Assembly (NCBI GenBank): GCA_951406725.2
Contig: OX597820.1
Span: 86,056,001 to 86,120,000 of the forward strand
Length of the DNA stretch: 64,000 bases
Direction: 5' to 3'
DNA from: Octopus vulgaris
Taxonomy: Eukaryota
Shown piece after piece: positions 8,290 to 63,119 of the stretch. The translations under genes and the position numbers were made by a program. The notes beneath the pieces are model-generated. The model had not been told where the DNA came from, made no database searches, and worked only from the letters and a program-made list of their open reading frames with translations. The stretch's first letter is position 1, and the number at the start of each line of letters is the position of its first letter.

Positions 8290-9020
8290 ATATTCTTATT
8301 ATTGTTGTTATTATTCTACTTAACTCAAGTTTGGTGATAATCTTCGTAAAATTTATGTAGGTAGCGAGTTATTACTCAAATAGTAAATAGCCGCAAGTTT
8401 TCAATAACATTTCATGTACTCAAAATCCTTCTACTAAGCTTTTCTGTTCCTAAGAAGCAAACTTACTGTAGAAGCTGTATATGACATTTCAATCCCCTCT
8501 CATTCAACTATTTGTGTATATTATTACACTCAATCCACAACATTTATAGTTCTCATATTCCAAGTACTTTTTCAACCCACTGATCATACCAAGTAATTCC
8601 AGCTTCACCCCACCATTTCTCGCTCAGTTTCCAGTGCAAGACTTTCACAACTTGGTCATACCACCGTTTCTCATATTCTCTCTGAGCTAACATGAAACAT
8701 TCTGCAATAATATGTGCCATTGTTTCATCCCCAATTCCACACATACTACATTTTGCGGATACTTTCTGCCCATACACATATTTTTGAAGTTGTATATTTT
8801 TAGCGCTTGAACTTGCGCTGCTATAATAAGGCTCTCTGTTTCTTTTTTTCAATTGCTATTTTTTCAAACAGGCCCAGACTCAGTGGATTTCCAATACTGA
8901 CTATGCAAAAGTTTCTCATCAATCTGCTTAACATGCTTTGTTTGAATTTCATTTTTATCCTTTTCTCCTATTCAACAGGTTTTTACCGGTTCTTTTTTTA
9001 TTCACCACTTTATTAATTTT
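8290..9020 (-). mobile_element. 5'-truncated R4/Dong-type copy (CCHC finger, internally deleted RLE, 3' UTR, TAA/CAA tail)
   Basis: ORF 8553-8852 KCSMCGIGDETMAHIIAECFMLAQREYEKRWYDQVVKVLHW is the CCHC + RHD-equivalent motif. C-terminus WNMRTINVV...LLQ*VCFLGT; 3' UTR homologous to 9385-9490. Confidence 0.8.
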
Positions 9021-33100: not shown

Positions 33101-33724
33101 TAAATGTATCATGCGCCTACCATATTTTATTATCTCTGATGTAAACAAGTAACACACCAGCTTAAAAAATTCTGCATCTGCTTATTACGTCGAAGAGAAT
33201 GCGACTGTCGAATTAAGAAGACGAAAGTCCAGATCTGGCACTCTAGCGCAGAAAGGTGAAAATTACGAAAAAAAAAACTCGTACAATAATCTATGGGAAC
33301 CGGCACCGAGCTCTGTCAGATGTTTAGGAACTATTACAGAAACTGCCACGAGTATCTCAGTTAAATCTTCACAAAGAGAACAATTTTAACAATGTAAAAG
33401 CATTGAGGTAAGTCTATGCTATGTGCATTTGCCTCAGTTATCTCCCGTGCACATTCAAACAAAATGCAAGGTGGTATTGACTAAACTTCAGGAAAATTTC
33501 TGGGTTAATTTTCAGGAGGGAAAAAAGTGAAGGAATCGCTGTGTACATTCCAAATATATAGGAAATATATTAAGTCATTAATTATAACCGTGAGGGATTA
33601 TTTTTTCAGAGTTGGTTCACAACATTTCTTATATTATATAAAATATACACTAAGTATTGGTTTTTCTCTGTTCCACATTCTAGAAACTAAACGCACAACA
33701 TGTGTATTTAACACACACACACAC

Positions 33725-34137
33725 ACACACATCACATCACAACGCACCACCACGCACACACCAGCACTGACCAATTCCCATCCCCACATTTTCACACCTG
33801 CACATACACGCAAACGTCAAGATCACCAACCTTCTTTCACACGCACATACGTACTCTCTTGCACACACGCACAGCTTCGTTTTGGGATTAGTACTACTTT
33901 GTTATCTCCCCTACTTCTTAGCTCCTCTGTGTGACCCTCCTATCCAGCATTCGCCATGATAGATCGCTAGCCACTACACACATTTTTTTCTCTCCTTGTT
34001 TCTTTCTGTGTTCCTTTCTGTGGAAGAGCATAGGCTCGAAACGTTAAAGATTTTTTCATTTCCCGAGCATCATACTAATACATCTGTTTGTTTTCTACAC
34101 CACCTGTCTCTGTCTTTTGTTTTTTGTGAATTCTACC

Positions 34138-34140
<3 letters not shown>
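33725..34140 (+). mobile_element. Penelope-like pseudo-LTR fragment with hammerhead-like motif, ending at (TA)n
   Basis: Contains cttt-ctgtggaa-gagc(atag)gctc-gaaa-cgt-t-aaag (34014-34049) and ends directly at (TA)n 34141-34190. Confidence 0.55.
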
Positions 34141-34193
<53 letters not shown>

Positions 34194-34286
34194 GAGTAAA
34201 CACATAAATGTGAAACAAGGTGGAAAAAAGAGTACTCAAATACCAGTGGTAGAGTAATATGCTTTATTTAAAGCAGCAGAAAATTC

Positions 34287-34340
34287 AACAAAATCTGTTA
34301 CTCTGAGTTTCTCGTTGCCGTTCATCAGACAGTTTTTGTT
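34287..34340 (-). ncRNA. Minimal type-I hammerhead ribozyme motif (minus-strand copy)
   Basis: Reverse complement reads aacaaaaa-ctgt-CTGATGA-acg(gcaa)cga-GAAA-ctc(a)gag-TA-acag-attttgtt. Confidence 0.7.
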
Positions 34341-34347
34341 AGAATCT

Positions 34348-34401
34348 AACAAAAACTGTCTGATGAACGGCAACGAGAAACTCAGAGTAACAGATCTTGT
34401 T
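34348..34401 (+). ncRNA. Minimal type-I hammerhead ribozyme motif (plus-strand copy)
   Basis: Stem I ctgt/acag (extendable aacaa/ttgtt), core CTGATGA 34360-66, stem II acg-gcaa-cga, GAAA 34377-80, near-palindromic stem III Actc-a-gagT, GUA cleavage triplet (cut after 34389). The stem II closing pair is A.A rather than the usual R-Y. Confidence 0.7.
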
Positions 34402-34425
34402 GAATTTTCTTCTGCTTTAAATAAA

Positions 34426-34474
<49 letters not shown>

Positions 34475-34476
<2 letters not shown>

Positions 34477-34830
34477 GGCGGTGCATCAGAGGGGGAGAAA
34501 GACCCAGGAAGACTTGGGACGAAGTAGAGAAACTTGATCTTCGGTTGTTGAGTCTCACAGAGTCGATGGCAAGTAACAGTGGGTTCTGGCGATTTGCTGA
34601 ACTTGAAAAGACACGTGAACTTAAGTGAAATCGTGGTCGTAACTAGTGCCGGTGACACGTCAAGGACACCCAGTATAATGTGCTGAGTGGATAGCGTTAG
34701 GAAGAGGAACCAGATGAAGAAACCAAGCCCAAAGAGACTGAAGACCGTGCAGCTTTCCGGCTTACCGGCTTCAGTCAAACCGTCTAAACCATGCCAGCAT
34801 ATAAAACTAATGAAATTAATGATGGTGATC
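34475..34830 (+). mobile_element. RTE-clade LINE 3' end
   Basis: RPRKTWDEVEKLDLRLLSLTESMAS...WR is typical of an RTE ORF C-terminus; 3' UTR ends ...aaccatgccagcat...tgatggtgat tail. Confidence 0.75.
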
Positions 34831-34994
34831 TGTGTGTTTGTATATATGTCTGTGTATGTATATATATGCAGTGTATCGGATGTTTTTATACAACGCTTGT
34901 CACAATGCGCTTTCTCCTCACAGTGTTGGAATGATGTTGGAACTTAAATGTCTTTACGGGCAAGGCAAACATTACCCAACCAAACAAAGCTCTA

Positions 34995-35117
34995 ATGGAG
35001 CAACGTAAAATAGAGTGCTTTACTCAAGAACACTGTACAACCCTCGCTCCAAGAATTATACCACAATCTCAGAATTGTGAGTGCAACACCCTAATCATTG
35101 GGCCATGCCCCGCCCAC
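34995..35117 (-). mobile_element. SINE family C head fragment
   Basis: Reverse complement resembles the head of 45941-46183 (gtgttcttgagtaaagcactctattttacgttgc). Confidence 0.55.
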
Positions 35118-35136
35118 ATACACAAACACAGGCATA

Positions 35137-35172
<36 letters not shown>

Positions 35173-36019
35173 TGTATGTATGTATGTATGTATGTATGTA
35201 TGCATGCATGTATGTATACCATATACCATAGACCCATTATATAAATATGTGTGCAAGCATGATATACGTGTGACTTTTATACGTACGTACGAATGACTGT
35301 AAGAGTAATGTAAAATATTACAGGCATTTGAAAACATTTTATTGTGATTTAGGTATAGAAACATTTAATAATACAATCTTCCAACTGTAAGAGAATCTTT
35401 AAAGAGAATACGGCTTGGTATACGCATAGACACACGCACACAAGTGTGTACGTATATAAATTTGTGTCCGTGAGCATTTGCGTGTTTATATGTATGTGTC
35501 TATACCTGTCTACATGTAATGAGGTGCACGCATATATGTGCATACATGTGTGGTTGCTCATGCTGATTATCACGCGTTGCTGGCAGAAGCTTCAAGAAAA
35601 TGTTGAGGCTGCTAGTCTGATTTTTTAAAGTTTTGGAATATAATATATAGATATATATTCTTACAGAACAAAGAACCAGTCACATGTAAATACACATAGT
35701 AACTACTTGTGTCATCAGACTAAATTTTATTATCATACACGGAGTGGGGTTTGGTATATATACTACTTCCTTCTGGCTTTATAACGTATATCACATAAAT
35801 CTTTTATATATATATATGTTAATATGTGTGTATATATATGTACATACATATGCATATACATGTATATATATATGTGTGTGTGTGTATGTATGTGTGAATG
35901 TGCAGATACATATATATATACGGCTACATACTTAACTGCATTTATATGCATACTTATAACCGTAAGAAGATATATATATATAAACATATATATACATATG
36001 CATGTATGTATGTATATAC

Positions 36020-36053
<34 letters not shown>

Positions 36054-36548
36054 TCATATAAATATATGTGTATGTGTGTATACGTATTTGTTTATACATA
36101 TATTTATAGATAGATTGACATATATATATATATATATGCTAGTATGTTTGTATGTATATATGCATGTATCTGTGTGTGAACGAACGTTTGCATGTATGTA
36201 TTCGTTTACACTCTTACTCGCTAATACAGCAGACTCCTCCATGTAAATCATTGGTCCTCATGAAATGAAATCTTTCATGAATTCAATTCAGTTCTGCTGG
36301 TAGCGTGTTATTCTTTGTTTCTGATCGCTGATCGCATCTTAGCAACGAGAAACTCAGTGAAGAGAAGTAAACGTGAATTACTTGAAATTAAGGTACGAAT
36401 GCTGAATATTTATTCAAGTGTTGTTCAAGTAATAATTTTAATACAGTCGATTTTGCTTGGAGTCCGTATGGCATGTGTCCGCCATTGCTCTTAAAGATTG
36501 TGGTTATCGTGTGCTATATATTGTTCCGTTGCTGAATAATTATCATTG

Positions 36549-36929: not shown

Positions 36930-38750
36930 AGCATGGCGTCAAATATTCTGATAAAATGTCAGGGAAATGAGAGGAAGGATTAGAAGAGTTGTCTTGACCC
37001 TGCCTTCCCGCCTTTAAACAAGGTACTACCATCATTACTATCTCCGAGACCACCATTTCCGATGGAAATAACCACAGCAATAACAAAAAAAAACAAGAAA
37101 GGTAAATATCTATTCGGTTATGGCTGCTGTTTTCTTGGACATGGAGAAATTTATGAGGCAAATATGTTTTCTTTTTTTTTTTGTTTTCGTGAACAAAACA
37201 GAAGCTGTAAAAACAAATTGGCCAAGCCGACAGATGGAGCTTTTTATCCAAATGGATCACCAAAGTATGAATCAATCCCACAGTTAATTATTCTGCCAAA
37301 CGACACAAAATTATATGTGGCCGCTAAGAATAGAAGTCTGAAGAATCATTTGTTTGATACAAACTATCGCAACGTTTTCTGTTCGCAGCAAAAAAGGGAA
37401 AGAGACTTTGAGTTGTTTATGCTCTAACGCCTGAAGAAAGTTGAACATATGCATGGTAGTCCTTGGAACCTGCTGCTCTTTTAGTGCTTGCTGGCTACAG
37501 CAACACTGTTTACATGTCCGTTTGGATTGTATGTGATTAGCTCTATTGGAGAGGGGGCTTCAAAAGTTTGGCGATTCTGCTCAGATTTTCTAACTGCTTG
37601 AGAGATATCAATTGGATATCCGGGATGCCCCAACATGAACATGGACAAACCGCATTGAGTCATCTGTATGGTATCTAGATAGAGTATTCAGTAAGCCACT
37701 AAGTAAGGAAACCATAGAGTATTCTGTAAGCCAGCGGGTAAGGAAGGCATAAGTTACTCTTTACTCTTTTACTCTTTTATTTGTTTCAGTCATTTGACTG
37801 CGGCCATGCTGGAGCACCGCCTTTAGTCGAGCAAATCGACTCCGGAACTTATTCTTTGTAAGCCCAGTACTTATTCTATCGGTATCTTTTGCCCAACCGC
37901 TAGGTGACGGGGACGTAAACACACCAGCATCGGTTGTCAAGCAATGCTAGTGGGACAAACACACACACATATACATATATACATATATATATACATATAA
38001 ACGACAGGCTTCTTTCAGTTTCCGTCTACCAAATCCACTCACAAGGCATTGGTCGGCCCGGGGCTATAGCAGAAGACACTTGCCCAAGATGCCACGCAGT
38101 GGGACTGAACCCGGAACCATGTGGTTGGTTAGCAAGCTACTTACCACACAGCCACTCCTGCGCAATCTTCGGCTAAACAGTCCAAAACTTTATAATCTAC
38201 ATAGTTGATCAAGATATGCTTCGACAACAGGGATCCGGTTACTGGAAACTGAACACTTGCTGCCCGTATTAGAGATCGCATTAAGCGAATTAGCGAAGTG
38301 TATGTGACGAGAGCAGCAATAAGTGGCAGTCTACTCTAAAAAGAAGTATGGAGTAGGATCAATAAAGTTCATAGACACAGAGAAAATTAGAGCAGGGAGT
38401 GATTTAGTTAAACGCTTAGAGGGGTCGCTTAAGAAAGACACTGCAACCGACGTTTTAGCGGTGCGATTAACCTTCGAACAAGTATTCAAAGCGAAGAACG
38501 ATTGCTACATTGTCACAGTTGAGGCACGTCTTCTAAAACACTTGAGGATTAAAGATGTTCAATGAGTCGAATCAGACCCCAGTTGACCTCAATCAGATGT
38601 GAAGTGTTTTTCAGAAGCACTTCATTCGACTGGTCTACACAAAGAGTAGGCTGCAGCACAGGATGGATTTCAATCTCTGCCTCGGCGGCCTGCCACAATT
38701 CTCAGCAGGGATGGATTCGTCGATTTGCGGCGTCCAAATACTCAAATTAA
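36930..38750 (+). mobile_element. Degraded Tx1/L1-clade LINE relic (ORF1 remnant, APE, linker), interrupted by SINE A
   Basis: ESIPQLIILPNDTKLYV (cf. DQVILLDGNTLRV in 48054-51380), TWTNRIESSVWYLDRVF (APE), GSGYWKLN, and LAVRLTFEQVFKAKNDCYIV (cf. LAARLAFDRHLNAKQDGCIV). Confidence 0.7.
37753..38163 (-). mobile_element. tRNA-derived SINE family A, near full length
   Basis: Minus strand begins gcgcaggagTGGCTGTGTGGtaag (A box)...GGTTCAGTCCC (B box), then CORE-like ttgggcaagtgtctt, an internal (TA/CA) tract and an (AAAGAGT)n tail. Confidence 0.92.
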
Positions 38751-41675: not shown

Positions 41676-42062
41676 TGCCAACCACATGGTCCCGAATTCA
41701 GTCCCACTGCGTGGTAACTTGGGCAAGTGTCTTCTACTATAGCATCGGGCTGACAAAATCCTTGTGAGTGGATTTGGTAGACAGAAACTGGAAGAAGTCC
41801 ATCGTATATGCATATATATGTATATGTATGTGTGTATATGATTGTTTGTTTGTGTTTGTCCCCACCCCCAACATCGCTTGACAACCGATGCTGGTATGTT
41901 TACGTCCCCATAACCTAGCAGTTCGGCAAAAGTGACCGATAGAATAAGTACTAGGCTTACAAAGAATACGCTCTGGGGTCGATTTGCTCGACTAAAGGTG
42001 GTGCTCCTGCATGGCCGTAGTCAAATGACTGAAACAAGTAATAGAGTAAAAGAGGAAAGAGT
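41676..42062 (+). mobile_element. SINE family A copy (A box lost)
   Basis: caaccacatggtcccgaattcagtcccactgcgtggtaacttgggcaagtgtcttc...gtcaaatgactgaaacaagtaatagagtaaaagag. Confidence 0.9.
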
Positions 42063-42802
42063 AACAATTTTCACTGATCTCGGTTCTAGCGTTGAACGGC
42101 TACCGACTGCTATTTCTAGCAATAAGTGGTACCTTGTTATGCCACTATTCCCTATTTATAATTCTACCTTTACCGTGCTTTATTTCGATAGAAAATAATA
42201 TTATTGTATTGTAATATTTATATTTTCATATAAAGCTAAAAATACTAAATCCTCGACAGTTCGACCTCTCAATTCACCCCAACTCTTTTACGGGAAGTGA
42301 TGTGATTGAGTGTGATTATGTTGTATAAATTGTACAAGTTAATGTCACATGATTATTTGTCTATAGAAGCTGTACTCCAACTTTGTCAGTGGTATATTTC
42401 TATGTATTTCTGATACCATCATTTATGATCATGTGGAATGGGTTTTTTTTTTTCATATGATAAACCTAGAAATATAATGAGCACTGGTTTTGAATTTTTA
42501 TAATTCTTTCTCTTACGTACTCTGGTGTATATGAACCCTTTCTTAAGCGGTTCCAATACCATAATTTCAGTGTCTGTAGCAAGAGGCTGCGAGCTTCTCA
42601 CTCAACCGTTCTGTATTTGTTGGGATGGGTGGAACTCAGTCGTCTCTTATCAAGGCTTTCAGTGTACAACGGATTTTGATCACAAAACACTGATGCCGAT
42701 TTCCCCCCTCTCTCTCTTTCTCACACTCTCTCTTTCATTCGCACAGATACACTCACTCTTTCCCTCACTCTTTCTTTCTGTCTCTCTTTGTTTGTCACTC
42801 TT

Positions 42803-48053: not shown

Positions 48054-51000
48054 TCTCTTTTGGCGCCCTATTATTTAACAAAGCTACAGGTTCGATTTCC
48101 ACTCGTTTAGTTAGTTATTTTTTTCTCTCCAGCCTTATTTTTTCTTTTAAATTGGAATATAAAATGTTGCTTTCACCCGAGGCTGGAGAGAAAGATACCT
48201 GTTACGATTCTTTTCACACGTGTCAGCCACATGGCCTCCTTCGCTGTAGCCATTAAGCAGAGAAAAGTTGCCTGTCATCCCTTGTTGAAAAAAAAGCTGT
48301 GGAACAATCTTGATAATGGACTCGGTTGACAGCTATGCTCTTCCTGTGCGTGACAGCTGGTGTTCAACATAAGCCCATAGCTCTGATATCCGCGACCCTG
48401 CATGATCGCATGCAAAACAGTTTCACTGCTCTGCTCTCATCTCGGGCATGTTGGCGTGGTGGTACTCCCGTGTCTAAAGAGTTTATCTCGGACGAGTAGT
48501 GCACCTCGGTAGCACTGCCAGTCCAGGGATTTCTGGTAGTTATCGATAGGCGCCGGCCCAAAAGTCCTCCCGAACAGACCGGCAAGTTGACTGTCATCGA
48601 AATCCATGGTCACCCCTAGGACGTCCTCAGACTTGCCCGTTACTGACTCCCTATCGAAAGGCGAGGTGGATCCCTGCCGTTCGTGTTTCCTGTTTGGGAG
48701 AGAAGCAAGAGAGCTTGATAGCACACTGCTTGCCAAACACCCAACCTAGGTCTACGCCTGATCCACGGGTTCATCTCACTAGAGGAGGTGCATGAGTTTG
48801 GGCGGCATCGGTCTGTTTCTCCAGGTGCTAAGGAGTAGGCCGACTGATTTGTCCTGGTTTATTTTTGCTCATGTCACCACTTCGTAATCTTTTGTGGTAC
48901 CACCTACTTGTTGCAGGTGATTGTCACCTCTCCATGGTGTAGTGTATGGGGTGAGAGATGGGCTTGATATTATCATAGGAGTCCCCCTTTTTTAGATCCA
49001 ATTTAGCAGCACTATGAGTCTTCGGTTTACAGAACTGGGAATGCTCCCATTTTTCTGCCACTTACGTCTAAACAAGTCTGGCATGTTGTAATAAAATTCG
49101 TAGGGTAGACCATCGAGCACCGGCGACTTATCGCTGACGCAGCCTGATAGGGCTACTTCCACCTACGCAGCTGTGATCGGCCCTTCCTACCCCGAGAGTT
49201 GCGGCAAGCCGTCGAGGAAGTCTGTGAAGTTCATCTGCGTCCTGTCGCGCCACTCGTCCCGAAAAGCTGAGCGAAATGTTGGTGAAAGATCTTACAAATT
49301 CCATTGAGTTCGTTTATTAATCGCCCCTGTTGGTTGACCAAAGACATTATGGTGGCATCATTGCCACATTGAGACCCTACTACATGGGCCAATGGGGGTC
49401 CTTGATTCCCTCTTGTCCCATGGCACGTATCTTAGCTCTCACGATGCATCCATCTTGTTTGGCATTGAGGTGTCGGTCGAAGGCTAACCTTGCTGCCAGC
49501 ACGAATGATGCGCTACCTGCCCCCATTGCCTCTTCTAGGGACCTAATTCTCTTTCTACTCAATTTTTTCTCAAGTACTAATTCTATGCTAAACCTAATTG
49601 ACTCAAATTTTATGACTCTTTTGAGGGCGTACCACCAGTTGTTATTTAAGATGGTGTCTATTAACGCTCTCTTAACTATAACTCGCTAATCCGGTTACTG
49701 TATGCGTTACATGCTAGGAGCGATTTGTTTAGTTTCTAGTAACCGGAGGCCTCCCTAGGAAAGTTATCTACGGCAAGCCTACAGGTTACGAATTTGTGAT
49801 GACCGGGGAAATATTTTTGAACGAGGCCAACGTCTTCCGGTTAATTTTTTAGTTCTAAATATATATATATTGTCAATATTGATGAATGAATTGTTTTCTA
49901 GTATGTTCGGGTTTCGTGGACAGTATGAGGTGGGATATGTGGATTGTTATGTGTGAGTTCCATTAAGGTGGTATTGTTAGTATTGATCGCTGTAATGTTG
50001 ATGATGGGTTTCCGGGTGATGGGTTAGTTGTTTGGAGCTTCAGTGTTGTAAGTGTGGGTGACGGTGATTTTGTGTCAGTGGTGTTAATGTGTGTAGGGGA
50101 GGATTTTTTTTGTTTTACGTATTTTAATGATTTCCGTCCATTCATTTTGGTTGGCTTCACTTCCTTTCTCGGGGTTTCCAGTTGGGTTTTTTTTTCGGCG
50201 TTGTGCTGGATGCCGTCATTCTGTCTTCTTTTGGGATTTCAATTTGTGTGGCATTGTTGGGTGGAGGGATCACCGTTTGTTGTTGGTCTTGTGGGCAATC
50301 GTTTCTTATATGACCCTTTTGCCCACGTTTATGAAATCGTGCTTTTCTTCCCTCCACCATTACTCTTAATGTGTTTCCATCAAGTAAAATTACCTGGTCT
50401 GATAGATCTTCGAGGTCTCTTTGGGTGGCCTGGATTATTAGTTCCAGGCCCTGACCCCACCAGTTTTGTTGGTGCAGCTTGGTCGCTTGGTACCTTGGAG
50501 GATAGTAATTCTACCCTCTATGTTCGACAAAACGGCTGCTACCAACCATCCACATCGATTTCTGGTGGGACCTCCCCTACCCTGATTGTCGAAGTTCGCT
50601 TTCCGAGACAAGTCGGCAGTATCACCATTTCTGCAAATTTTAGGGTTGTTGTGGAGTGTTTTTCCGCGGCTTCTTCGGAGGCGAACCTCACTTAAACAGT
50701 GCCATATCACTTTCCTCTTGCTGTGTATTTAGTTTCTTGCCAGATGGGTTGGAGACATTTTTCTATACCCCCTTTGGCTGCCATTTCAATTTCGTTTTGT
50801 CTTCAGTGATAGTGTTTTATATACGATTGTCTTTCATTGTGTGGTTGGTATTACATCCACCGGAGAATTTAGCTTAATGTTAGTGGCCTCTTTTAACAAT
50901 TGGTTTTTACATTTTTCTCGTTCGCTTAGGCTTACTTGTATTTTTTCCAGGTTAACACTGGATACGGAAGCGAAGTTGGTTTTTTGTTAACATATGGTTT

Positions 51001-53984: not shown

Positions 53985-56900
53985 TATTATTATTATTACT
54001 TTTTTTTTTCTTCTTTCAAATTTTCTTCCATTTCTTGCCGAGTGTCTTCCCGACTCCTAGGGCAAAGAAACTCATAGTATATATTGGTAGGCCATTAAAC
54101 CAAACTCAGTAGTTAGTTCATTTTTTTTTTTTTTTTAAAGTTAAATTAAAATACATGAGCAGCAACAGTTCTCACATCGACAATGCTCTTCTCAATACGT
54201 GTGATGTACCAGTTAAGACAATCTTTTGCACTTCTTGCAGGGATGGTAAGCCAGGGATCATTCTCATATAATTTTCGGTTCCCTTCTTGATCATTCCTAG
54301 TGCTCCTACGATCACTGGTATTGTAACCGCCTTGAGATGCCACATTTTCTCAATTTCAATGAGTAGGTCTTTATATTTTCTGAGCTTGTCAAACTCTTTC
54401 GCTGAGATGCTCATGTCAATCAATAAGCAAACTTTATTGTTTTGGTCTTTCACAACAATATCTGGTTTATTGGCCTTGATGGTTCGGTCTGTATGTACTG
54501 GAAAGTCCCACAGAATGGTTACATTTTCTCCTTCAGTTACAGCCTCAGGGTGGTGATTATACCACTTGTCGGCAGTTTTGATATTGTAATGCCGACTTAT
54601 TAGCCAGTGGAGATATTGGCCAACTCTGTCATGTCTTAATTTATACTCCACTGGTGCTAAGACTTTACATCCAGAGATTAGGTGGTCCACTGTTTCAATC
54701 ATGTCGTTGCAGAATCGGCATTTTGGGTCTGCTCCATTTTTCATCACATTGGCCTGGTAGTTCCGGGTTAATAGGCTTTGGTCTTGAGCAGCCAGGATGA
54801 AACCTTCGCTCTCTGCTTTTAGCCCTGAGCTCCGCAGCCACTGATGGGTTTGCTTCTGGTCAACATCAGCTTGTTTGCTGCGGGTCACATATTTGCCGTG
54901 CAGAGGTTTCTCCTCCCACCTATCAGCCAATTGCTCGTGCGCTTTTTTCATTGCCATCATTTTCACCTTCTTTGCAACAATAGTTGCCGTACTTCCCTCG
55001 GGTTGTTCAGTTTGGGTATCCTGCACGAGATCAATAGCAAATTCTTTGCTTTCCTTGATGATAGAATGAAGCTTCTTTCGTCTCTCGTGATTTTCCACGA
55101 GCTTTAGCATCCAGTCATTCGATATTTCGAGATATTTGGCCAGTCCAATTGTGGTTGTTTTGTAAGCTAGTTCAAATTGGATCAGGCCTCGACCTCCTTG
55201 GGCTCTGGGAAGGTAAAGGCGATCTACGTCTGCCTTTGGGTGGTGCATCCTATTACAACTCACCAGCTTGCGTATTTTTCTATCTATATTCTTTACTTCA
55301 CTCATATTCCAGTTCAACACATTGTAGCTATAAGTAACAACTGGAACTGCTAAGGAATTTATAGCTAACACCTTGTTACGTGCATTTAGTTCAGATTTCA
55401 GGACTGCACGTACTCTCCTATAACATTCCTTCCTGATTTTCTCTTTCATGCTTGCATGCTGAATACCAGAGCCTTCATTTATCCCTAAATATTTGTACGT
55501 CTGTTCTTGCTCAAGCTCTTTTATGACTGTGTCAACATCTAACACGACTGAATTTGTGGTCTTCACTTTCCCTTTCTGGAAAGTGGCCTTGGCACACTTC
55601 TCAAGTCCAAACTCCATCCTGATGTCATCGCTGAATGCTTTCACGGTGCGCAATAGGCCTTCAAGTTCATTATTGTCTTTACCATAAAGTTTTAAGTCAT
55701 CCATATAAAATAGATGGCTTATTTTTTTATTGGCAATTTTATACCCATACCCTGTTCTGTTTAATTCACTTGTAAGGGGTATTAGGGCTATGCAGAATAT
55801 TAAAGGTGAAAGTGAGTCACCTTGAAAAATTCCACAGTTGATGTTTATATTTTCTGAGGCAAGTACTCCATTAGAGTGGTATAATTGGAGATTCGTATTC
55901 CACAACGACATATTGTGCTTCAGGAAGTTTGAAATCACAGGGGGAATTTTAAAGATGTCCAGCGATCCCAAGATCCATGGATGCGGTATACTGTCGAAGG
56001 CCTTTTTATAGTCAATCAATGCGGTGCTGAGATTTCTGCGCTTGTTGTGACAGTTCTCAAGGATCATACGATTGATTAGCAGTTGATCTTTGCATCCGTA
56101 AGAGCCTCGGCGGCACCCTTTTTGTTCAATGGGGAAAATATCGTTCTTCTCCATGAATGCATATGTTTTCTCCGCCAGGATAGATGTTAGGATTTTATAC
56201 GTGGTGGATAGACAGGTTATAGGCCGATAGTTTTTTGGAAGGTTGGTTTCGTTATTCTTTGGGAGTAGGTAAGTAATGCCACTTGCTAACCATTCAGGTG
56301 TTTTCTTTGGGTCTCTCAAAATTCCATTGAGCAGCTGAACTAGCTTACCGTGTGCGCACGGGAGCGATGCGAGCCAGAAATTCGGCACCCTATCTTTACC
56401 GGGGGATTTCCAATTATGGGCCTTCGTGAGTGCCTTTCTTAGGTCTGCTATTGTGATGTCTTCCCATGCTTGTTGTTGTAAATTTTGGTAGGATCCTTCA
56501 GTTTGTATAATCCAGTCTACATTTATGTTGTACGTCTTCTTGTCACTCCAAATCCTTTCCCAAAAGTTTTGAACTTCTTCCATGGGAGGGGGGTCTTTAA
56601 CGGTTACTTTCTCCTTCCCTATTTCTCTGTAGAATTTTTTGGCATTGGATGTGAACAGCTTATTTTGCTTGTAAAACTTGTTTCTCTTCTCAAATCTTCG
56701 TATTCTTTGGGCTTTTGCTTGGACTTTTTGTTTCAGCGTTTCTTTTATTGATATCAGTTCTTCTCTTGGTGAGGATCCAAATTTTCTCTTCATCTTTCTT
56801 CCTGTTCTGGATCTTACATCATTTCCACATATTAGTTCATTTAATATTGATATTTCCCCTCTCATAAATTCAATCTCTTTTTCAATTTTACTTCTCCAGG

Positions 56901-57900
56901 TTTGATTTCTTCCCAGGTTTTGTTTTCTTTGTTTTTTCGGGGGCATACAGCTGGTTTCAATTGCCCTAGCAGAAGCGTAAATAATTTCATTTAACTCAGT
57001 AAAATCAGGTTTTAATTCTCGTATTATTTCATTTGTTACATAGTTGCCAATTTGGATTTGTTTTTTATTTTGGTTTGTATTTGAGAGTTTATGAAGCGGT
57101 TCTCTATCATTCATACTTGTATGTCTTACAACTTCAAGCATATTCAGGATTTTCTGCCTCATTTCTGCCATAGACTCTCTGTGTTCTTCAGCAAATGCGA
57201 GATCTTCAGTTACTGTTGTTTTTTCGTTTTCCTGGCTATCTTTAACAGGTACAATAGAATTTCTTGTATCTTCAGGCCTTTGCGTACTTTGGTCAGATGG
57301 CAGTCTTTCAATTAAGCCTCGTGGCGGGCTATACTGTTCATCTGATTCTTCATTTCCTTTGTGTCTTATATTTATGTCATTTTCCGTTGCGTGCTTGATC
57401 GCACTTATTTCACTGTCTGTGAGTCTGTTATTTCTAAAGATATCCCTCCTCACATTTGCTAATTTGTTCTCGTCCAAATAGGGCCTACTGTCTTGATTCC
57501 GTGTTCTCCATATACTGTAAGAGTTTGCGGTGTGTCTCTCTTGAGATGGCCTACCTAATGCATAGTAATAAGCGTATATTACTTCTTTATACTCTTCTCG
57601 GGTCCATTTGTTCCGCTTACATTTTTCTTTCTGTGGTGGTTGTGGTGGTGAACTTGGAGGGCTCGAGTTGGGGGATTTCCCGTTCAAGTGACCATCCATG
57701 TCCGTATTCGGAGAAGAGTTTGTGCCAGTTGATGACTTTTCGATCCCAGGCTGGCTCTTCCCTGGAGGACGCGCTTCCAGATTAACCATAGGACAAGCGA
57801 TTTGGTATACTGATTTAGTTTTCCTTTTAGTTTCCAAAAACATTTTGGTGCTACGATAATGTTATCATTTTTTAGCTTTGATTGGCTCGTGGGGAGACGG
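53985..57900 (-). mobile_element. Near-full-length R4/Dong-type (RLE) non-LTR retrotransposon
   Basis: Single long ORF with RT and C-terminal RLE; ~185-nt 3' UTR ending in A-rich/(TAA)n, shared with the copy at 59140-60022. The 5' boundary is uncertain and merges into a degenerate (ATC/ATT)n tract. Confidence 0.92.
54172..57843 (-). CDS. Retrotransposon polyprotein: reverse transcriptase + CCHC zinc knuckle + restriction-like endonuclease (R4/Dong-like), 1223 aa
   Basis: KSPGKD, NYRPITCL, IDYKKAFDSIPH, GIFQGDSLSP, HLFYMDDLKLY, YKYLGI; CRFC...ETVDHLISGC, RHD, KPDIV...ID, K..KY. No APE domain and no R2-type N-terminal zinc fingers. Confidence 0.95.
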   Translation of the reverse strand: MFLETKRKTKSVYQIACPMVNLEARPPGKSQPGIEKSSTGTNSSPNTDMDGHLNGKSPNSSPPSSPPQPPQKEKCKRNKWTREEYKEVIYAYYYALGRPSQERHTANSYSIWRTRNQDSRPYLDENKLANVRRDIFRNNRLTDSEISAIKHATENDINIRHKGNEESDEQYSPPRGLIERLPSDQSTQRPEDTRNSIVPVKDSQENEKTTVTEDLAFAEEHRESMAEMRQKILNMLEVVRHTSMNDREPLHKLSNTNQNKKQIQIGNYVTNEIIRELKPDFTELNEIIYASARAIETSCMPPKKQRKQNLGRNQTWRSKIEKEIEFMRGEISILNELICGNDVRSRTGRKMKRKFGSSPREELISIKETLKQKVQAKAQRIRRFEKRNKFYKQNKLFTSNAKKFYREIGKEKVTVKDPPPMEEVQNFWERIWSDKKTYNINVDWIIQTEGSYQNLQQQAWEDITIADLRKALTKAHNWKSPGKDRVPNFWLASLPCAHGKLVQLLNGILRDPKKTPEWLASGITYLLPKNNETNLPKNYRPITCLSTTYKILTSILAEKTYAFMEKNDIFPIEQKGCRRGSYGCKDQLLINRMILENCHNKRRNLSTALIDYKKAFDSIPHPWILGSLDIFKIPPVISNFLKHNMSLWNTNLQLYHSNGVLASENININCGIFQGDSLSPLIFCIALIPLTSELNRTGYGYKIANKKISHLFYMDDLKLYGKDNNELEGLLRTVKAFSDDIRMEFGLEKCAKATFQKGKVKTTNSVVLDVDTVIKELEQEQTYKYLGINEGSGIQHASMKEKIRKECYRRVRAVLKSELNARNKVLAINSLAVPVVTYSYNVLNWNMSEVKNIDRKIRKLVSCNRMHHPKADVDRLYLPRAQGGRGLIQFELAYKTTTIGLAKYLEISNDWMLKLVENHERRKKLHSIIKESKEFAIDLVQDTQTEQPEGSTATIVAKKVKMMAMKKAHEQLADRWEEKPLHGKYVTRSKQADVDQKQTHQWLRSSGLKAESEGFILAAQDQSLLTRNYQANVMKNGADPKCRFCNDMIETVDHLISGCKVLAPVEYKLRHDRVGQYLHWLISRHYNIKTADKWYNHHPEAVTEGENVTILWDFPVHTDRTIKANKPDIVVKDQNNKVCLLIDMSISAKEFDKLRKYKDLLIEIEKMWHLKAVTIPVIVGALGMIKKGTENYMRMIPGLPSLQEVQKIVLTGTSHVLRRALSM

Positions 57901-59139: not shown

Positions 59140-60022
59140 TTTCTACTTTCAATATTGATTCCATTTTTTGCTGGGTTATTTCCCGACACCTAGAGCAAAA
59201 TGTCTCATTGTATATTTTTATTGGTAGGCCATTTAAATTAAACACACTAAATTCGTTTACAAAGTCAAGTTATGTGATAGAAAACGGGGAAGAAAAAAGG
59301 AAGATGGAAAAAAAGGAAAAAGTGAAACAGAAAAATGGAAAAGAAGAAAAACGAAAACAAATAAAATAAAGGGAAAAAGCAAAAAAAATTAACAGCGACA
59401 TTGTTCTTCTCAGTGTTTGTGAAGTACCACTTAGAATAATCTTTTTCACTTCTTGCATGTTTCATTCTCAAATCATTTTCAATTCCTTTTTTGATCATTC
59501 GATGTGTTCCTACACTGGTACTTTAACCGTCTTGAGATACCACATTTTTTCGATTTCAATCAGCAAACCATTTTTTTTTCTGAGCATATCAAATTCATTG
59601 GCCGAGATATTATGATCACAAGGTATGATCGTGTCAATCAATAAAAATATTTTATTGTTTTGGTCTTTCACAATAATATCTGGTTTATTAGCTTTGATTG
59701 TACCAGAAAGTCCCAAAGAATCATAATAATTTTCTCCTTCAGTTACAGCCTCAAGGTAGAGGTTATACCATTTGTCAGCAGATTTGATTTTAAAATGCCG
59801 ACATATCAACCAGTGTAGATATTGGCCAACTCTGTCATGTCTCATCCAGAGACTAAATGGTCCACTGTTTCAATCTCATGGTTACAGTATCGGGAATTTG
59901 GGTCTACTCCATTTTTCATTACATTGCCTTGGCAGTTCCGAGTCAATAAGCCCTGATCTTGAACAAGTAAAATGAAACCTTTGCACTCTGTCTTTAGCCC
60001 TGAGTTCTGTAGCCACTGATGG
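59140..60022 (-). mobile_element. 5'-truncated older copy of the same R4/Dong family
   Basis: ORF 59510-59845 RHDRVGQYLHWLI...NKPDIIVKDQNNK..LLID..IPCDHNISANEFD is closely similar to the long ORF; homologous 3' UTR; homology stops at ~60022. Confidence 0.92.
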
Positions 60023-62379: not shown

Positions 62380-62905
62380 AACAAGAAAAGCGGGTGGCCA
62401 TGGACATGTACAACTGGAATTAAAAATGAAGATTGCCACAACTGGCCAAAACACCTAAAATCTTTGATGACTGGATGTTAAAATTGTCTTAAAACATGAA
62501 AACAAGAAAACATCATACTAAGTAACAAAACAGGCAAAGAAATATCTTAGTGAATTCCAAGTACAACAAATCCCAGAATTAGACGTACTGGAAACAAGCA
62601 CAGTAAAAACTAAGCGTATGAAAACCTGTGCTAAAACTGCTGCCTGAGTTATTGTTACTGATAAATGGTAAGAAAAACCTCTGAATGGCAAAAACCGAAA
62701 GAGAGCTAATAATGCCGATGTTGACAAAACCCTTACTCATCAATTGTTAGTGTCTTCTGGTTTAAAATCAGAGACAGAAGGATTTATCATAGCAACCCAA
62801 GATCAATGCCTACACACAAGGAGCTACCAGGCCAACATATTAAAAACGGCAGTAGCCCAACATATCGCGTATGTCAACAACAAAAGGAAACCTTCAATCA
62901 TGTTA
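62380..62905 (+). mobile_element. R4/Dong fragment (post-RT region)
   Basis: DWMLKL, *EKPLNGK, ADVDKTLTHQLLVSSGLKSETEGFIIATQDQCLHTRSYQANILK match the long ORF. Confidence 0.85.
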
Positions 62906-63119
62906 AACGAAACACCTGTGTTTCTAGGGATGAATTATCCAAAGAATTCCTCTCAGAAACATGGCTATGATGCTACCCCACTACTTCTGCTCGTGATTAG
63001 AGATGCATATATCGTCAGCTACGAAGGGACATTCTCAACTGGTTAAAGTCAAACAACTGACAAGCAAATCTGTGGTATTGAGCAGAATATTTGCTGCAGT
63101 TCATCTTTTATAAATATAC

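Follow-up and report, generated by a model that had tools for sequence, protein, structure and literature searches.

The palindromic locus at 34191-34426 is most likely a dead-on-arrival insertion of an abundant Penelope-like retrotransposon that bears a hammerhead ribozyme, targets (TA)n and probably belongs to the Hydra clade. From its sequence, the unit is best read as the 3′ end of a Penelope-like element (PLE), that is, a pLTR with an optional tail, placed head to head with an inverted, tail-less and 5′-truncated copy. It shows the features expected of EN+ PLEs: a pLTR hammerhead near the 3′ end, an inverted 5′-truncated copy at the 5′ end and a tail confined to one side. No ORF lies in the stump, and it shows no sign of moving as a unit. 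As a structure it is nothing unusual: a neat small version of a PLE insertion type already in print. It points to a family that is abundant, young, probably of the Hydra clade and unlisted by Craig et al. 2021, and thousands of the family's stumps map both the start sites of reverse transcription and the points of fold-back.

The window, i.e. the whole 64-kb stretch of DNA that was analysed, contains no other non-microsatellite palindrome with at least 25 paired bases and a gap of at most 8 nt. The arms described in an earlier note were confirmed: 82 bp each (34262-34343 and 34345-34426), with two mismatches (34292/34396 and 34277/34411) around a 1-nt centre, A34344. An alternative call gave arms reaching 87 nt by running on into TA. 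The hairpin fold of the palindrome was estimated at -135.5 kcal/mol (z = -21.6), a value matched by 0 of 200 shuffles. The left arm, read on the minus strand, would be a 5′-truncated pLTR end running into the tail, and the right arm, on the plus strand, an inverted, tail-less copy. The 71 bp at 34191-34261 (minus strand), which occur once, correspond to the tail, the long 3′ end of the element; an optional tail has been published for PLEs. Within it, a bulged hairpin at 34233-34256 (minus strand, -5.2 kcal/mol) is followed by ACT. TA runs of 49 nt (34142-34190) and 46 nt (34427-34472) flank the unit, so that the earlier description of an unduplicated part between (TA)n flanks also holds. A target-site duplication, if present, is hidden in (TA)n on both sides, and beyond (TA)n the flanks have no mirror symmetry. 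Further copies were not found in the window, except for a 16-nt match at 36342-36357 without the core.

From the centre outward, each arm consists of stem I, CTGATGA, stem II, GAA, helix III, A17 and stem I′. Stem II consists of 2 bp above a basal A.A couple and is capped by a GCAA loop, and helix III is a 9-nt palindrome on each arm. The left motif (34287-34341, minus strand) has its core at 34328-34322 and 34311-34309, helix III at 34308-34300 and N17 at 34299; its stem I is extended by 7-8 extra pairs. The right motif (predicted, 34356-34393, plus strand) has its core at 34360-34366 and 34377-34379, helix III at 34380-34388 and N17 at 34389, and its distal stem I is interrupted by C34396. 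The predicted cuts fall between 34299 and 34298 on the minus strand and between 34389 and 34390 on the plus strand, the latter in agreement with the cut after 34389 that had been proposed. All parts of a type-I hammerhead are thus present (core CUGANGA/GAA, NUH site, helices I-III), although helix II is minimal. A type-I descriptor, composed after seeing the element, matched two sites in the window, which were these two, and none in 100 windows shuffled in 2-nt tiles; the descriptor match lies about 140 nt from the long end of the pLTR. Descriptor and anatomy agree on a putative minimal type-I hammerhead on each strand, as had been claimed.

Rfam did not recognize these motifs. At E ≤ 10, no hammerhead family was found on either arm (0 of 8 and 0 of 6 matches) or among the 70 matches at 33500-35200, and nothing in the whole window attained the gathering score. 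The Rfam check suggested in the earlier note therefore fails on both arms, but this failure does not refute the motif. Many Rfam microRNA matches merely reflected the hairpin, and a 29-codon reading frame starting in the core led nowhere. The minimum-energy structure of a single arm was not the hammerhead, and the self-duplex of helix III was estimated at -7.4 kcal/mol. Lunse and colleagues reportedly described dimeric small hammerheads in 2017.

We also surveyed the family in public contigs, using four runs in detail. X3 and X6 are possible source data of this DNA, X4 is of unstated kind and X14 is RNA by guess; none of the listed runs holding the family is recorded as RNA. All 11 sampled words occurred in 20 of the 24 listed runs, from five coded organisms and 10 studies, or six studies once the possible source runs are left out. 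On the 154 bases of 34191-34344, we counted 3336 contigs in X3, 4915 in X6, 3889 in X4 and 427 in X14, totals that do not equal copy number. In the three non-RNA runs, loose ends entered (TA)n before 34194 in 60, 80 and 47 contigs and before 34257 in 14, 41 and 35 contigs. The family therefore has a long and a short 3′ end, and these are the two ends of the locus at 34191-34426. The centre at 34344, which sits at the edge of the mapped stretch, was unseen in these contigs. Three of the five listed joints change strand, at 34227/34336, 34251/34331 and 34272/34336 (one contig each, 80% likeness). In X4, a loose end behind 34342 (seven contigs, agreement 0.6) opens with the exact reverse complement of 34328-34338; by its letters it is apparently a fold-back with a different centre. 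Because contigs of this kind preserve perfect palindromes poorly, a subfamily with a fixed centre could be missed. No copies were found in viral or metagenome contigs, and all seven 17-mer matches in prokaryotes were due to chance, with no core upstream. An ORF for RT/GIY-YIG was absent from the 149 frames scanned among the 181 of the window. Literature searches, which left out most subscription papers, Repbase, Dfam and bioRxiv supplements, returned no description of the family; it may thus be catalogued elsewhere.

Among the family contigs, no variant of at least 2% was listed at 34277 or 34292. Therefore, at each mismatch the left arm has the base of the family, and both derived bases (34396 and 34411) lie in the right, tail-less arm. 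At position 11.1 (34312, the mirror of 34376), the three non-RNA runs had A in 50-71%, G in 19-34% and U in 11-16%, where the share of A was obtained by subtraction from depth and contig mapping favours reference-like copies. Earlier, the A.A couple had been taken for an unusual variant and T for the normal base at 34376. However, A is the majority base, which makes the couple a family trait, and 15 of the 25 Hydra-clade hammerheads tabulated in PMC8557442 have an unpaired couple, U.U or U.C, in the same place. In the non-RNA runs, nine family sites reached a variation of at least 2%, and their distribution fits both the hammerhead and the tail hairpin. Both of those in the hammerhead were unpaired and outside the core (P ~ 0.08), and all three in the tail hairpin were unpaired (P ~ 0.01). 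In another hairpin, at 34260-34275, both variable sites were paired, and two further sites lay outside any structure. The fold of the whole tail was no more stable than that of shuffled sequences, 19% of which reached it.

The published mechanism of PLE insertion suggests how such a stump might form. Craig et al. 2021 (PMC8557442) described PLEs with an inverted 5′-truncated copy beside the 5′ end, a tail at one end and (TA)n targets. Arkhipova et al. 2013 (PMC3846280) reported palindromes at head-to-head junctions and interpreted them as self-priming, and Frangieh et al. 2024 (PMC11167929) reported two start sites of reverse transcription, the interval between which is the tail. At our locus, the RT/GIY-YIG protein of the parent element would have nicked a (TA)n run, and the cDNA would have started at the long, tailed end and halted after about 150 nt, on the 5′ side of the extended stem I. 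Its end would then have folded back and been copied through the hammerhead a second time, and the second arm would have been resolved at the short 3′ end. We lean towards such fold-back copying, since a junction symmetric to one base would be a coincidence under twin priming from the two start sites. Twin priming explains the asymmetric joints of other copies. The ribozyme itself would belong to the parent pLTR, where it probably acts as a helix-III dimer or with the help of protein (PMC11167929).

Other explanations of the palindrome have to be weighed against an insertion stump. The earlier note proposed a non-autonomous element that spreads as a palindrome, and a self-standing mini-PLE or retrozyme-like element of 236 bp might be copied whole by a PLE enzyme acting in trans. 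The family is very abundant with no ORF seen, trans mobilization of pLTRs is known (PMC3846280), and animal retrozymes have been argued to stem from PLE pLTRs (PMC7229834; bioRxiv 10.64898/2026.07.22.740005). However, other copies of the family invert at different points, both differences between the arms are private to the right arm, and the ribozyme, together with a large part of the template for reverse transcription, would lie hidden within the hairpin. Head-to-tail tandem units, the defining trait of non-LTR retrozymes, are also missing, the locus being a single head-to-head pair. As the published insertion structure fits the locus (PMC8557442, PMC3846280), we consider a mobile palindrome improbable, and the proposal did not hold. 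The unit also differs from a MITE or DNA transposon in lacking fixed terminal inverted repeats, since one end bears the 71-bp tail and the inversion points vary. An artefact of assembly or of fold-back in the library would explain why the centre was unseen in contigs, and PLE inversions do trouble assemblies (PMC8557442). But the arms differ at two sites, the duplication ends at the short 3′ end of the family, and the flanks past (TA)n are not mirrored, which together make an artefact the least probable of the explanations considered.

It could also be asked whether the host keeps the hairpin as a regulatory structure, either a substrate of ADAR or Dicer or a ribozyme switch. The 82-bp duplex is nearly perfect, and in other animals heavy editing affects palindromic repeats as well as Penelope copies. 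A transcript in either direction would contain one sense ribozyme, as had been stated, and the twin ribozymes are unable to pair with each other within one transcript. The hairpin would also bury the core as proposed, according to the folding energies (-135.5 kcal/mol against about -7.5 kcal/mol for the hammerhead fold). The suggestion of a switch between alternative folds did not stand, because the arms lie head to head and read-through in either direction yields the antisense arm first. With the antisense arm made before the ribozyme in both transcripts, the 82-bp hairpin should keep the ribozyme off. The ribozymes at this locus are therefore predicted to be off rather than switchable; exceptions would be transcription that begins at or beyond the centre, or melting of the duplex by editing. 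No host gene was found nearby among the window frames, and no RNA specific to the locus was found. Moreover, the arms are simply young, the editing-like changes described below affect one strand only, and the antisense-first order rules out a kinetic switch. A regulatory hairpin kept by the host is thus very improbable.

At the level of the family, X14 differed from the three other runs in a way that resembles RNA editing. It had the kinds of difference seen in X3 and five more, all of them T to C on the plus strand, i.e. A to G on the ribozyme strand. These were at 34284 (51% of the depth, 31 contigs), 34298 (9%), the cut-site A17 at 34299 (13%), 34304 in the loop of helix III (2.4%) and A15.1 at 34308 (2.5%). 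In X3, X6 and X4, the same five sites changed in 0-0.034%, and 34284 in 0-0.03%. One kind of change out of twelve, observed five times, fits A-to-I editing of the family, if X14, a single run, is RNA as guessed. The same pattern could arise from private alleles at a small number of expressed loci. Editing-like sites made up five of 23 on the ribozyme strand and none of 22 on the other strand (Fisher's exact test, P = 0.049). This bias suggests that the substrate would be the stems of the ribozyme itself rather than perfect palindromes, although hyper-edited reads would be lost from contigs. The bias of the 5′ neighbour was not significant (0 of 5 with a 5′ G and 5 of 10 without, P = 0.10). The earlier idea of ADAR acting on the locus thus gained support at the family level from A-to-I-like changes, but these were confined to the ribozyme strand, unlike what a perfect hairpin predicts. 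The two main genomic polymorphisms of the hammerhead were 34294 and 34312. Both are A/G on the ribozyme strand and occur at helix mismatches, with G shares of 48-60% and 19-34%, respectively; retrotransposition could have fixed old edits there. By contrast, 34284, the RNA site that looks most edited, has not become fixed.

Editing of Penelope repeats has been published for lizard and frog. Inosine at position 15.1 (I15.1) affects the hammerhead. An engineered hammerhead became about 30-fold slower with inosine at N17 (Fukuda et al. 2014, PMC3923133). Our searches, which left out most subscription papers, returned no report of ADAR editing of a natural PLE hammerhead. We therefore offer, as a speculation that is less likely to be right than wrong by a wide measure, that host ADAR edits the sense strand of the family hammerhead at A17 and A15.1, tuning or blocking a self-cleavage that would otherwise occur in vivo, and that the edited RNA is not recopied into the genome. 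If true, this would be a natural retrotransposon ribozyme gated by editing and a handle on whether PLE hammerheads cut in cells; for an anole PLE, no reads at the cut site were found in the data presented by Frangieh et al. 2024 (PMC11167929). Should the editing-like changes be borne out, PLE hammerhead cleavage in vivo and its control by ADAR could be tested directly on members of the family. Relative to the other runs, the depth of X14 fell 3.1-4.0-fold; the step fitted best at 34290-34298 (range 34279-34309), near the predicted cut between 34299 and 34298. We did not count this as cleavage: comparisons of DNA with DNA also stepped (1.3-fold at 34300, 1.6-fold at 34322), the ends of RNA molecules are invisible in contigs, the step comes from a single study, and the same profile would result from an internal start, from 3′ bias or if hyper-edited reads were lost. 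We also considered a splice acceptor at 34295; none of the six X14 loose-end rows listed lies there (24 of 445 rows were listed).

Several other features of the window were noted. An unbroken frame of 1229 amino acids at 54172-57861 (minus strand) encodes a non-LTR reverse transcriptase (Pfam RVT_1, E = 2e-29) with a C-terminal zinc finger; its best database relative is 67% identical over residues 400-900. Fragments related to this frame are found at 8553-8855, 59510-59869 and 62672-63046; frame and fragments have nothing to do with the palindrome. At 48437-50728 (minus strand), broken LINE-like frames were recognized by eye (an L1/Tx1-like ORF1 zinc knuckle and pieces of RT), with no Pfam match. 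The segments 37753-37997 and 41821-42065 form an inverted pair of 245 nt, 84% complementary and 3.8 kb apart, which are probably two copies of a SINE-like repeat. At 4784-4750 (minus strand), another hammerhead-like core, CTGACGA ... GAAAC, combines a stem II of 3 bp with a palindromic helix III and lacks stem I; judged from these motifs, it is perhaps a decayed pLTR of another family.

The nearest relatives of the parent element seem to be in the Hydra clade, among which Hydra-2_Amil, Hydra-2_Ajap and Penelope-3_HM come closest in the material published by Craig et al. 2021 (PMC8557442). Compared by eye over short motifs, the hammerhead of the coral element Hydra-2_Amil shares stem I (8 of 8), the core, the paired bases of helix III (8 of 8) and the cut base; the left hammerhead has its architecture. 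The hammerhead of Hydra-2_Amil lies about 150 nt from the end of that element, against about 140 nt here. In the tabulated part of the same source, a helix III of the form actc-N-gagt occurs in five of 25 Hydra families, and 19 of 25 have a helix III that is a palindrome of 9 nt. Compared by eye with these 25 families, the canonical hammerhead here follows the Hydra pattern. A bulged hairpin closed by GCTC/GAGC and followed by ACT lies at the end of Hydra-2_Amil, at that of Hydra-2_Ajap and at the start of Hydra-1_Ajap. The tail hairpin here has, by eye, the same shape and is closed by ACTC/GAGT, followed by ACT. Such a hairpin, common to Hydra elements and unmentioned in the available text of PMC8557442, is a candidate signal for RT binding or initiation. 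The metadata of that study list (TA)n for 26 of 27 Hydra rows, and the family here inserts into (TA)n as well, a feature also found in other clades. Seven motifs of the element, 9-15 nt long, had no match in the supplement of Craig et al. 2021, and the listed octopus element Hydra-1_Obim has a different hammerhead; therefore, the family is unlisted there. The clade is defined by a linked RT/GIY-YIG ORF, with RWK, DKT and a CxCX5C linker and no CCHH as its marks, and no such ORF was found in the window frames scanned; membership in Hydra is therefore probable and not more. The more general claim of a Penelope-like origin is supported by the pLTR hammerhead, the inverted copy, the one-sided tail and (TA)n, all of which match published PLEs. 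Descent from another clade (Neptune, Nematis or Poseidon) or from an ORF-less, SINE-like pLTR family, with the likeness to Hydra due to convergence of short motifs, is unlikely yet less so than any rival considered above. A small palindromic helix III is widespread among metazoan PLEs (PMC4209133), Neptune and Naiad likewise favour (TA)n (PMC8557442), and the RT/GIY-YIG ORF was not found in the window frames scanned. However, stem I, helix III, the cut base and the tail hairpin all fit Hydra consensuses. Naiads have no canonical hammerhead (PMC8557442), whereas the full motif is present here, and the listed octopus Naiad consensuses contain none of the seven motifs.

Compared with known systems, the locus resembles published EN+ PLE insertion units (PMC3846280, PMC11167929) in its head-to-head, tail-less inverted copy, its two 3′ ends and its AT-rich target. 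It differs in the extreme truncation on both sides (153 + 82 bp), in a junction symmetric to 1 nt and in a tail of 64-71 nt, where published PLE tails have 30-40 bp. The non-LTR retrozymes (PMC7229834; bioRxiv 10.64898/2026.07.22.740005) are also ORF-less and PLE-related and have a type-I hammerhead. However, they are head-to-tail tandems giving circular RNA, whereas this locus is a single head-to-head stump. The minimal hammerheads of metazoan PLEs share the type-I topology, a palindromic helix III suited to dimers and dual motifs on opposite strands, which Cervera and de la Pena 2014 (PMC4209133) described in Schistosoma. They reported the G10.1-C11.1 pair as highly conserved; here, this pair is absent, A facing A, G or U in the family contigs, and helix II is shorter, not longer, than canonical. 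Penelope-13_HM similarly has an inverted copy at its 5′ side with a second hammerhead on the other strand. With the Hydra clade, the family shares the 3′-terminal hammerhead, the unpaired couple at the base of stem II, the (TA)n target and the GAG(C/T)ACT tail hairpin, while its stem II is shorter (2 bp, GCAA loop and A.A, A.G or A-U) and its distal stem I is long.
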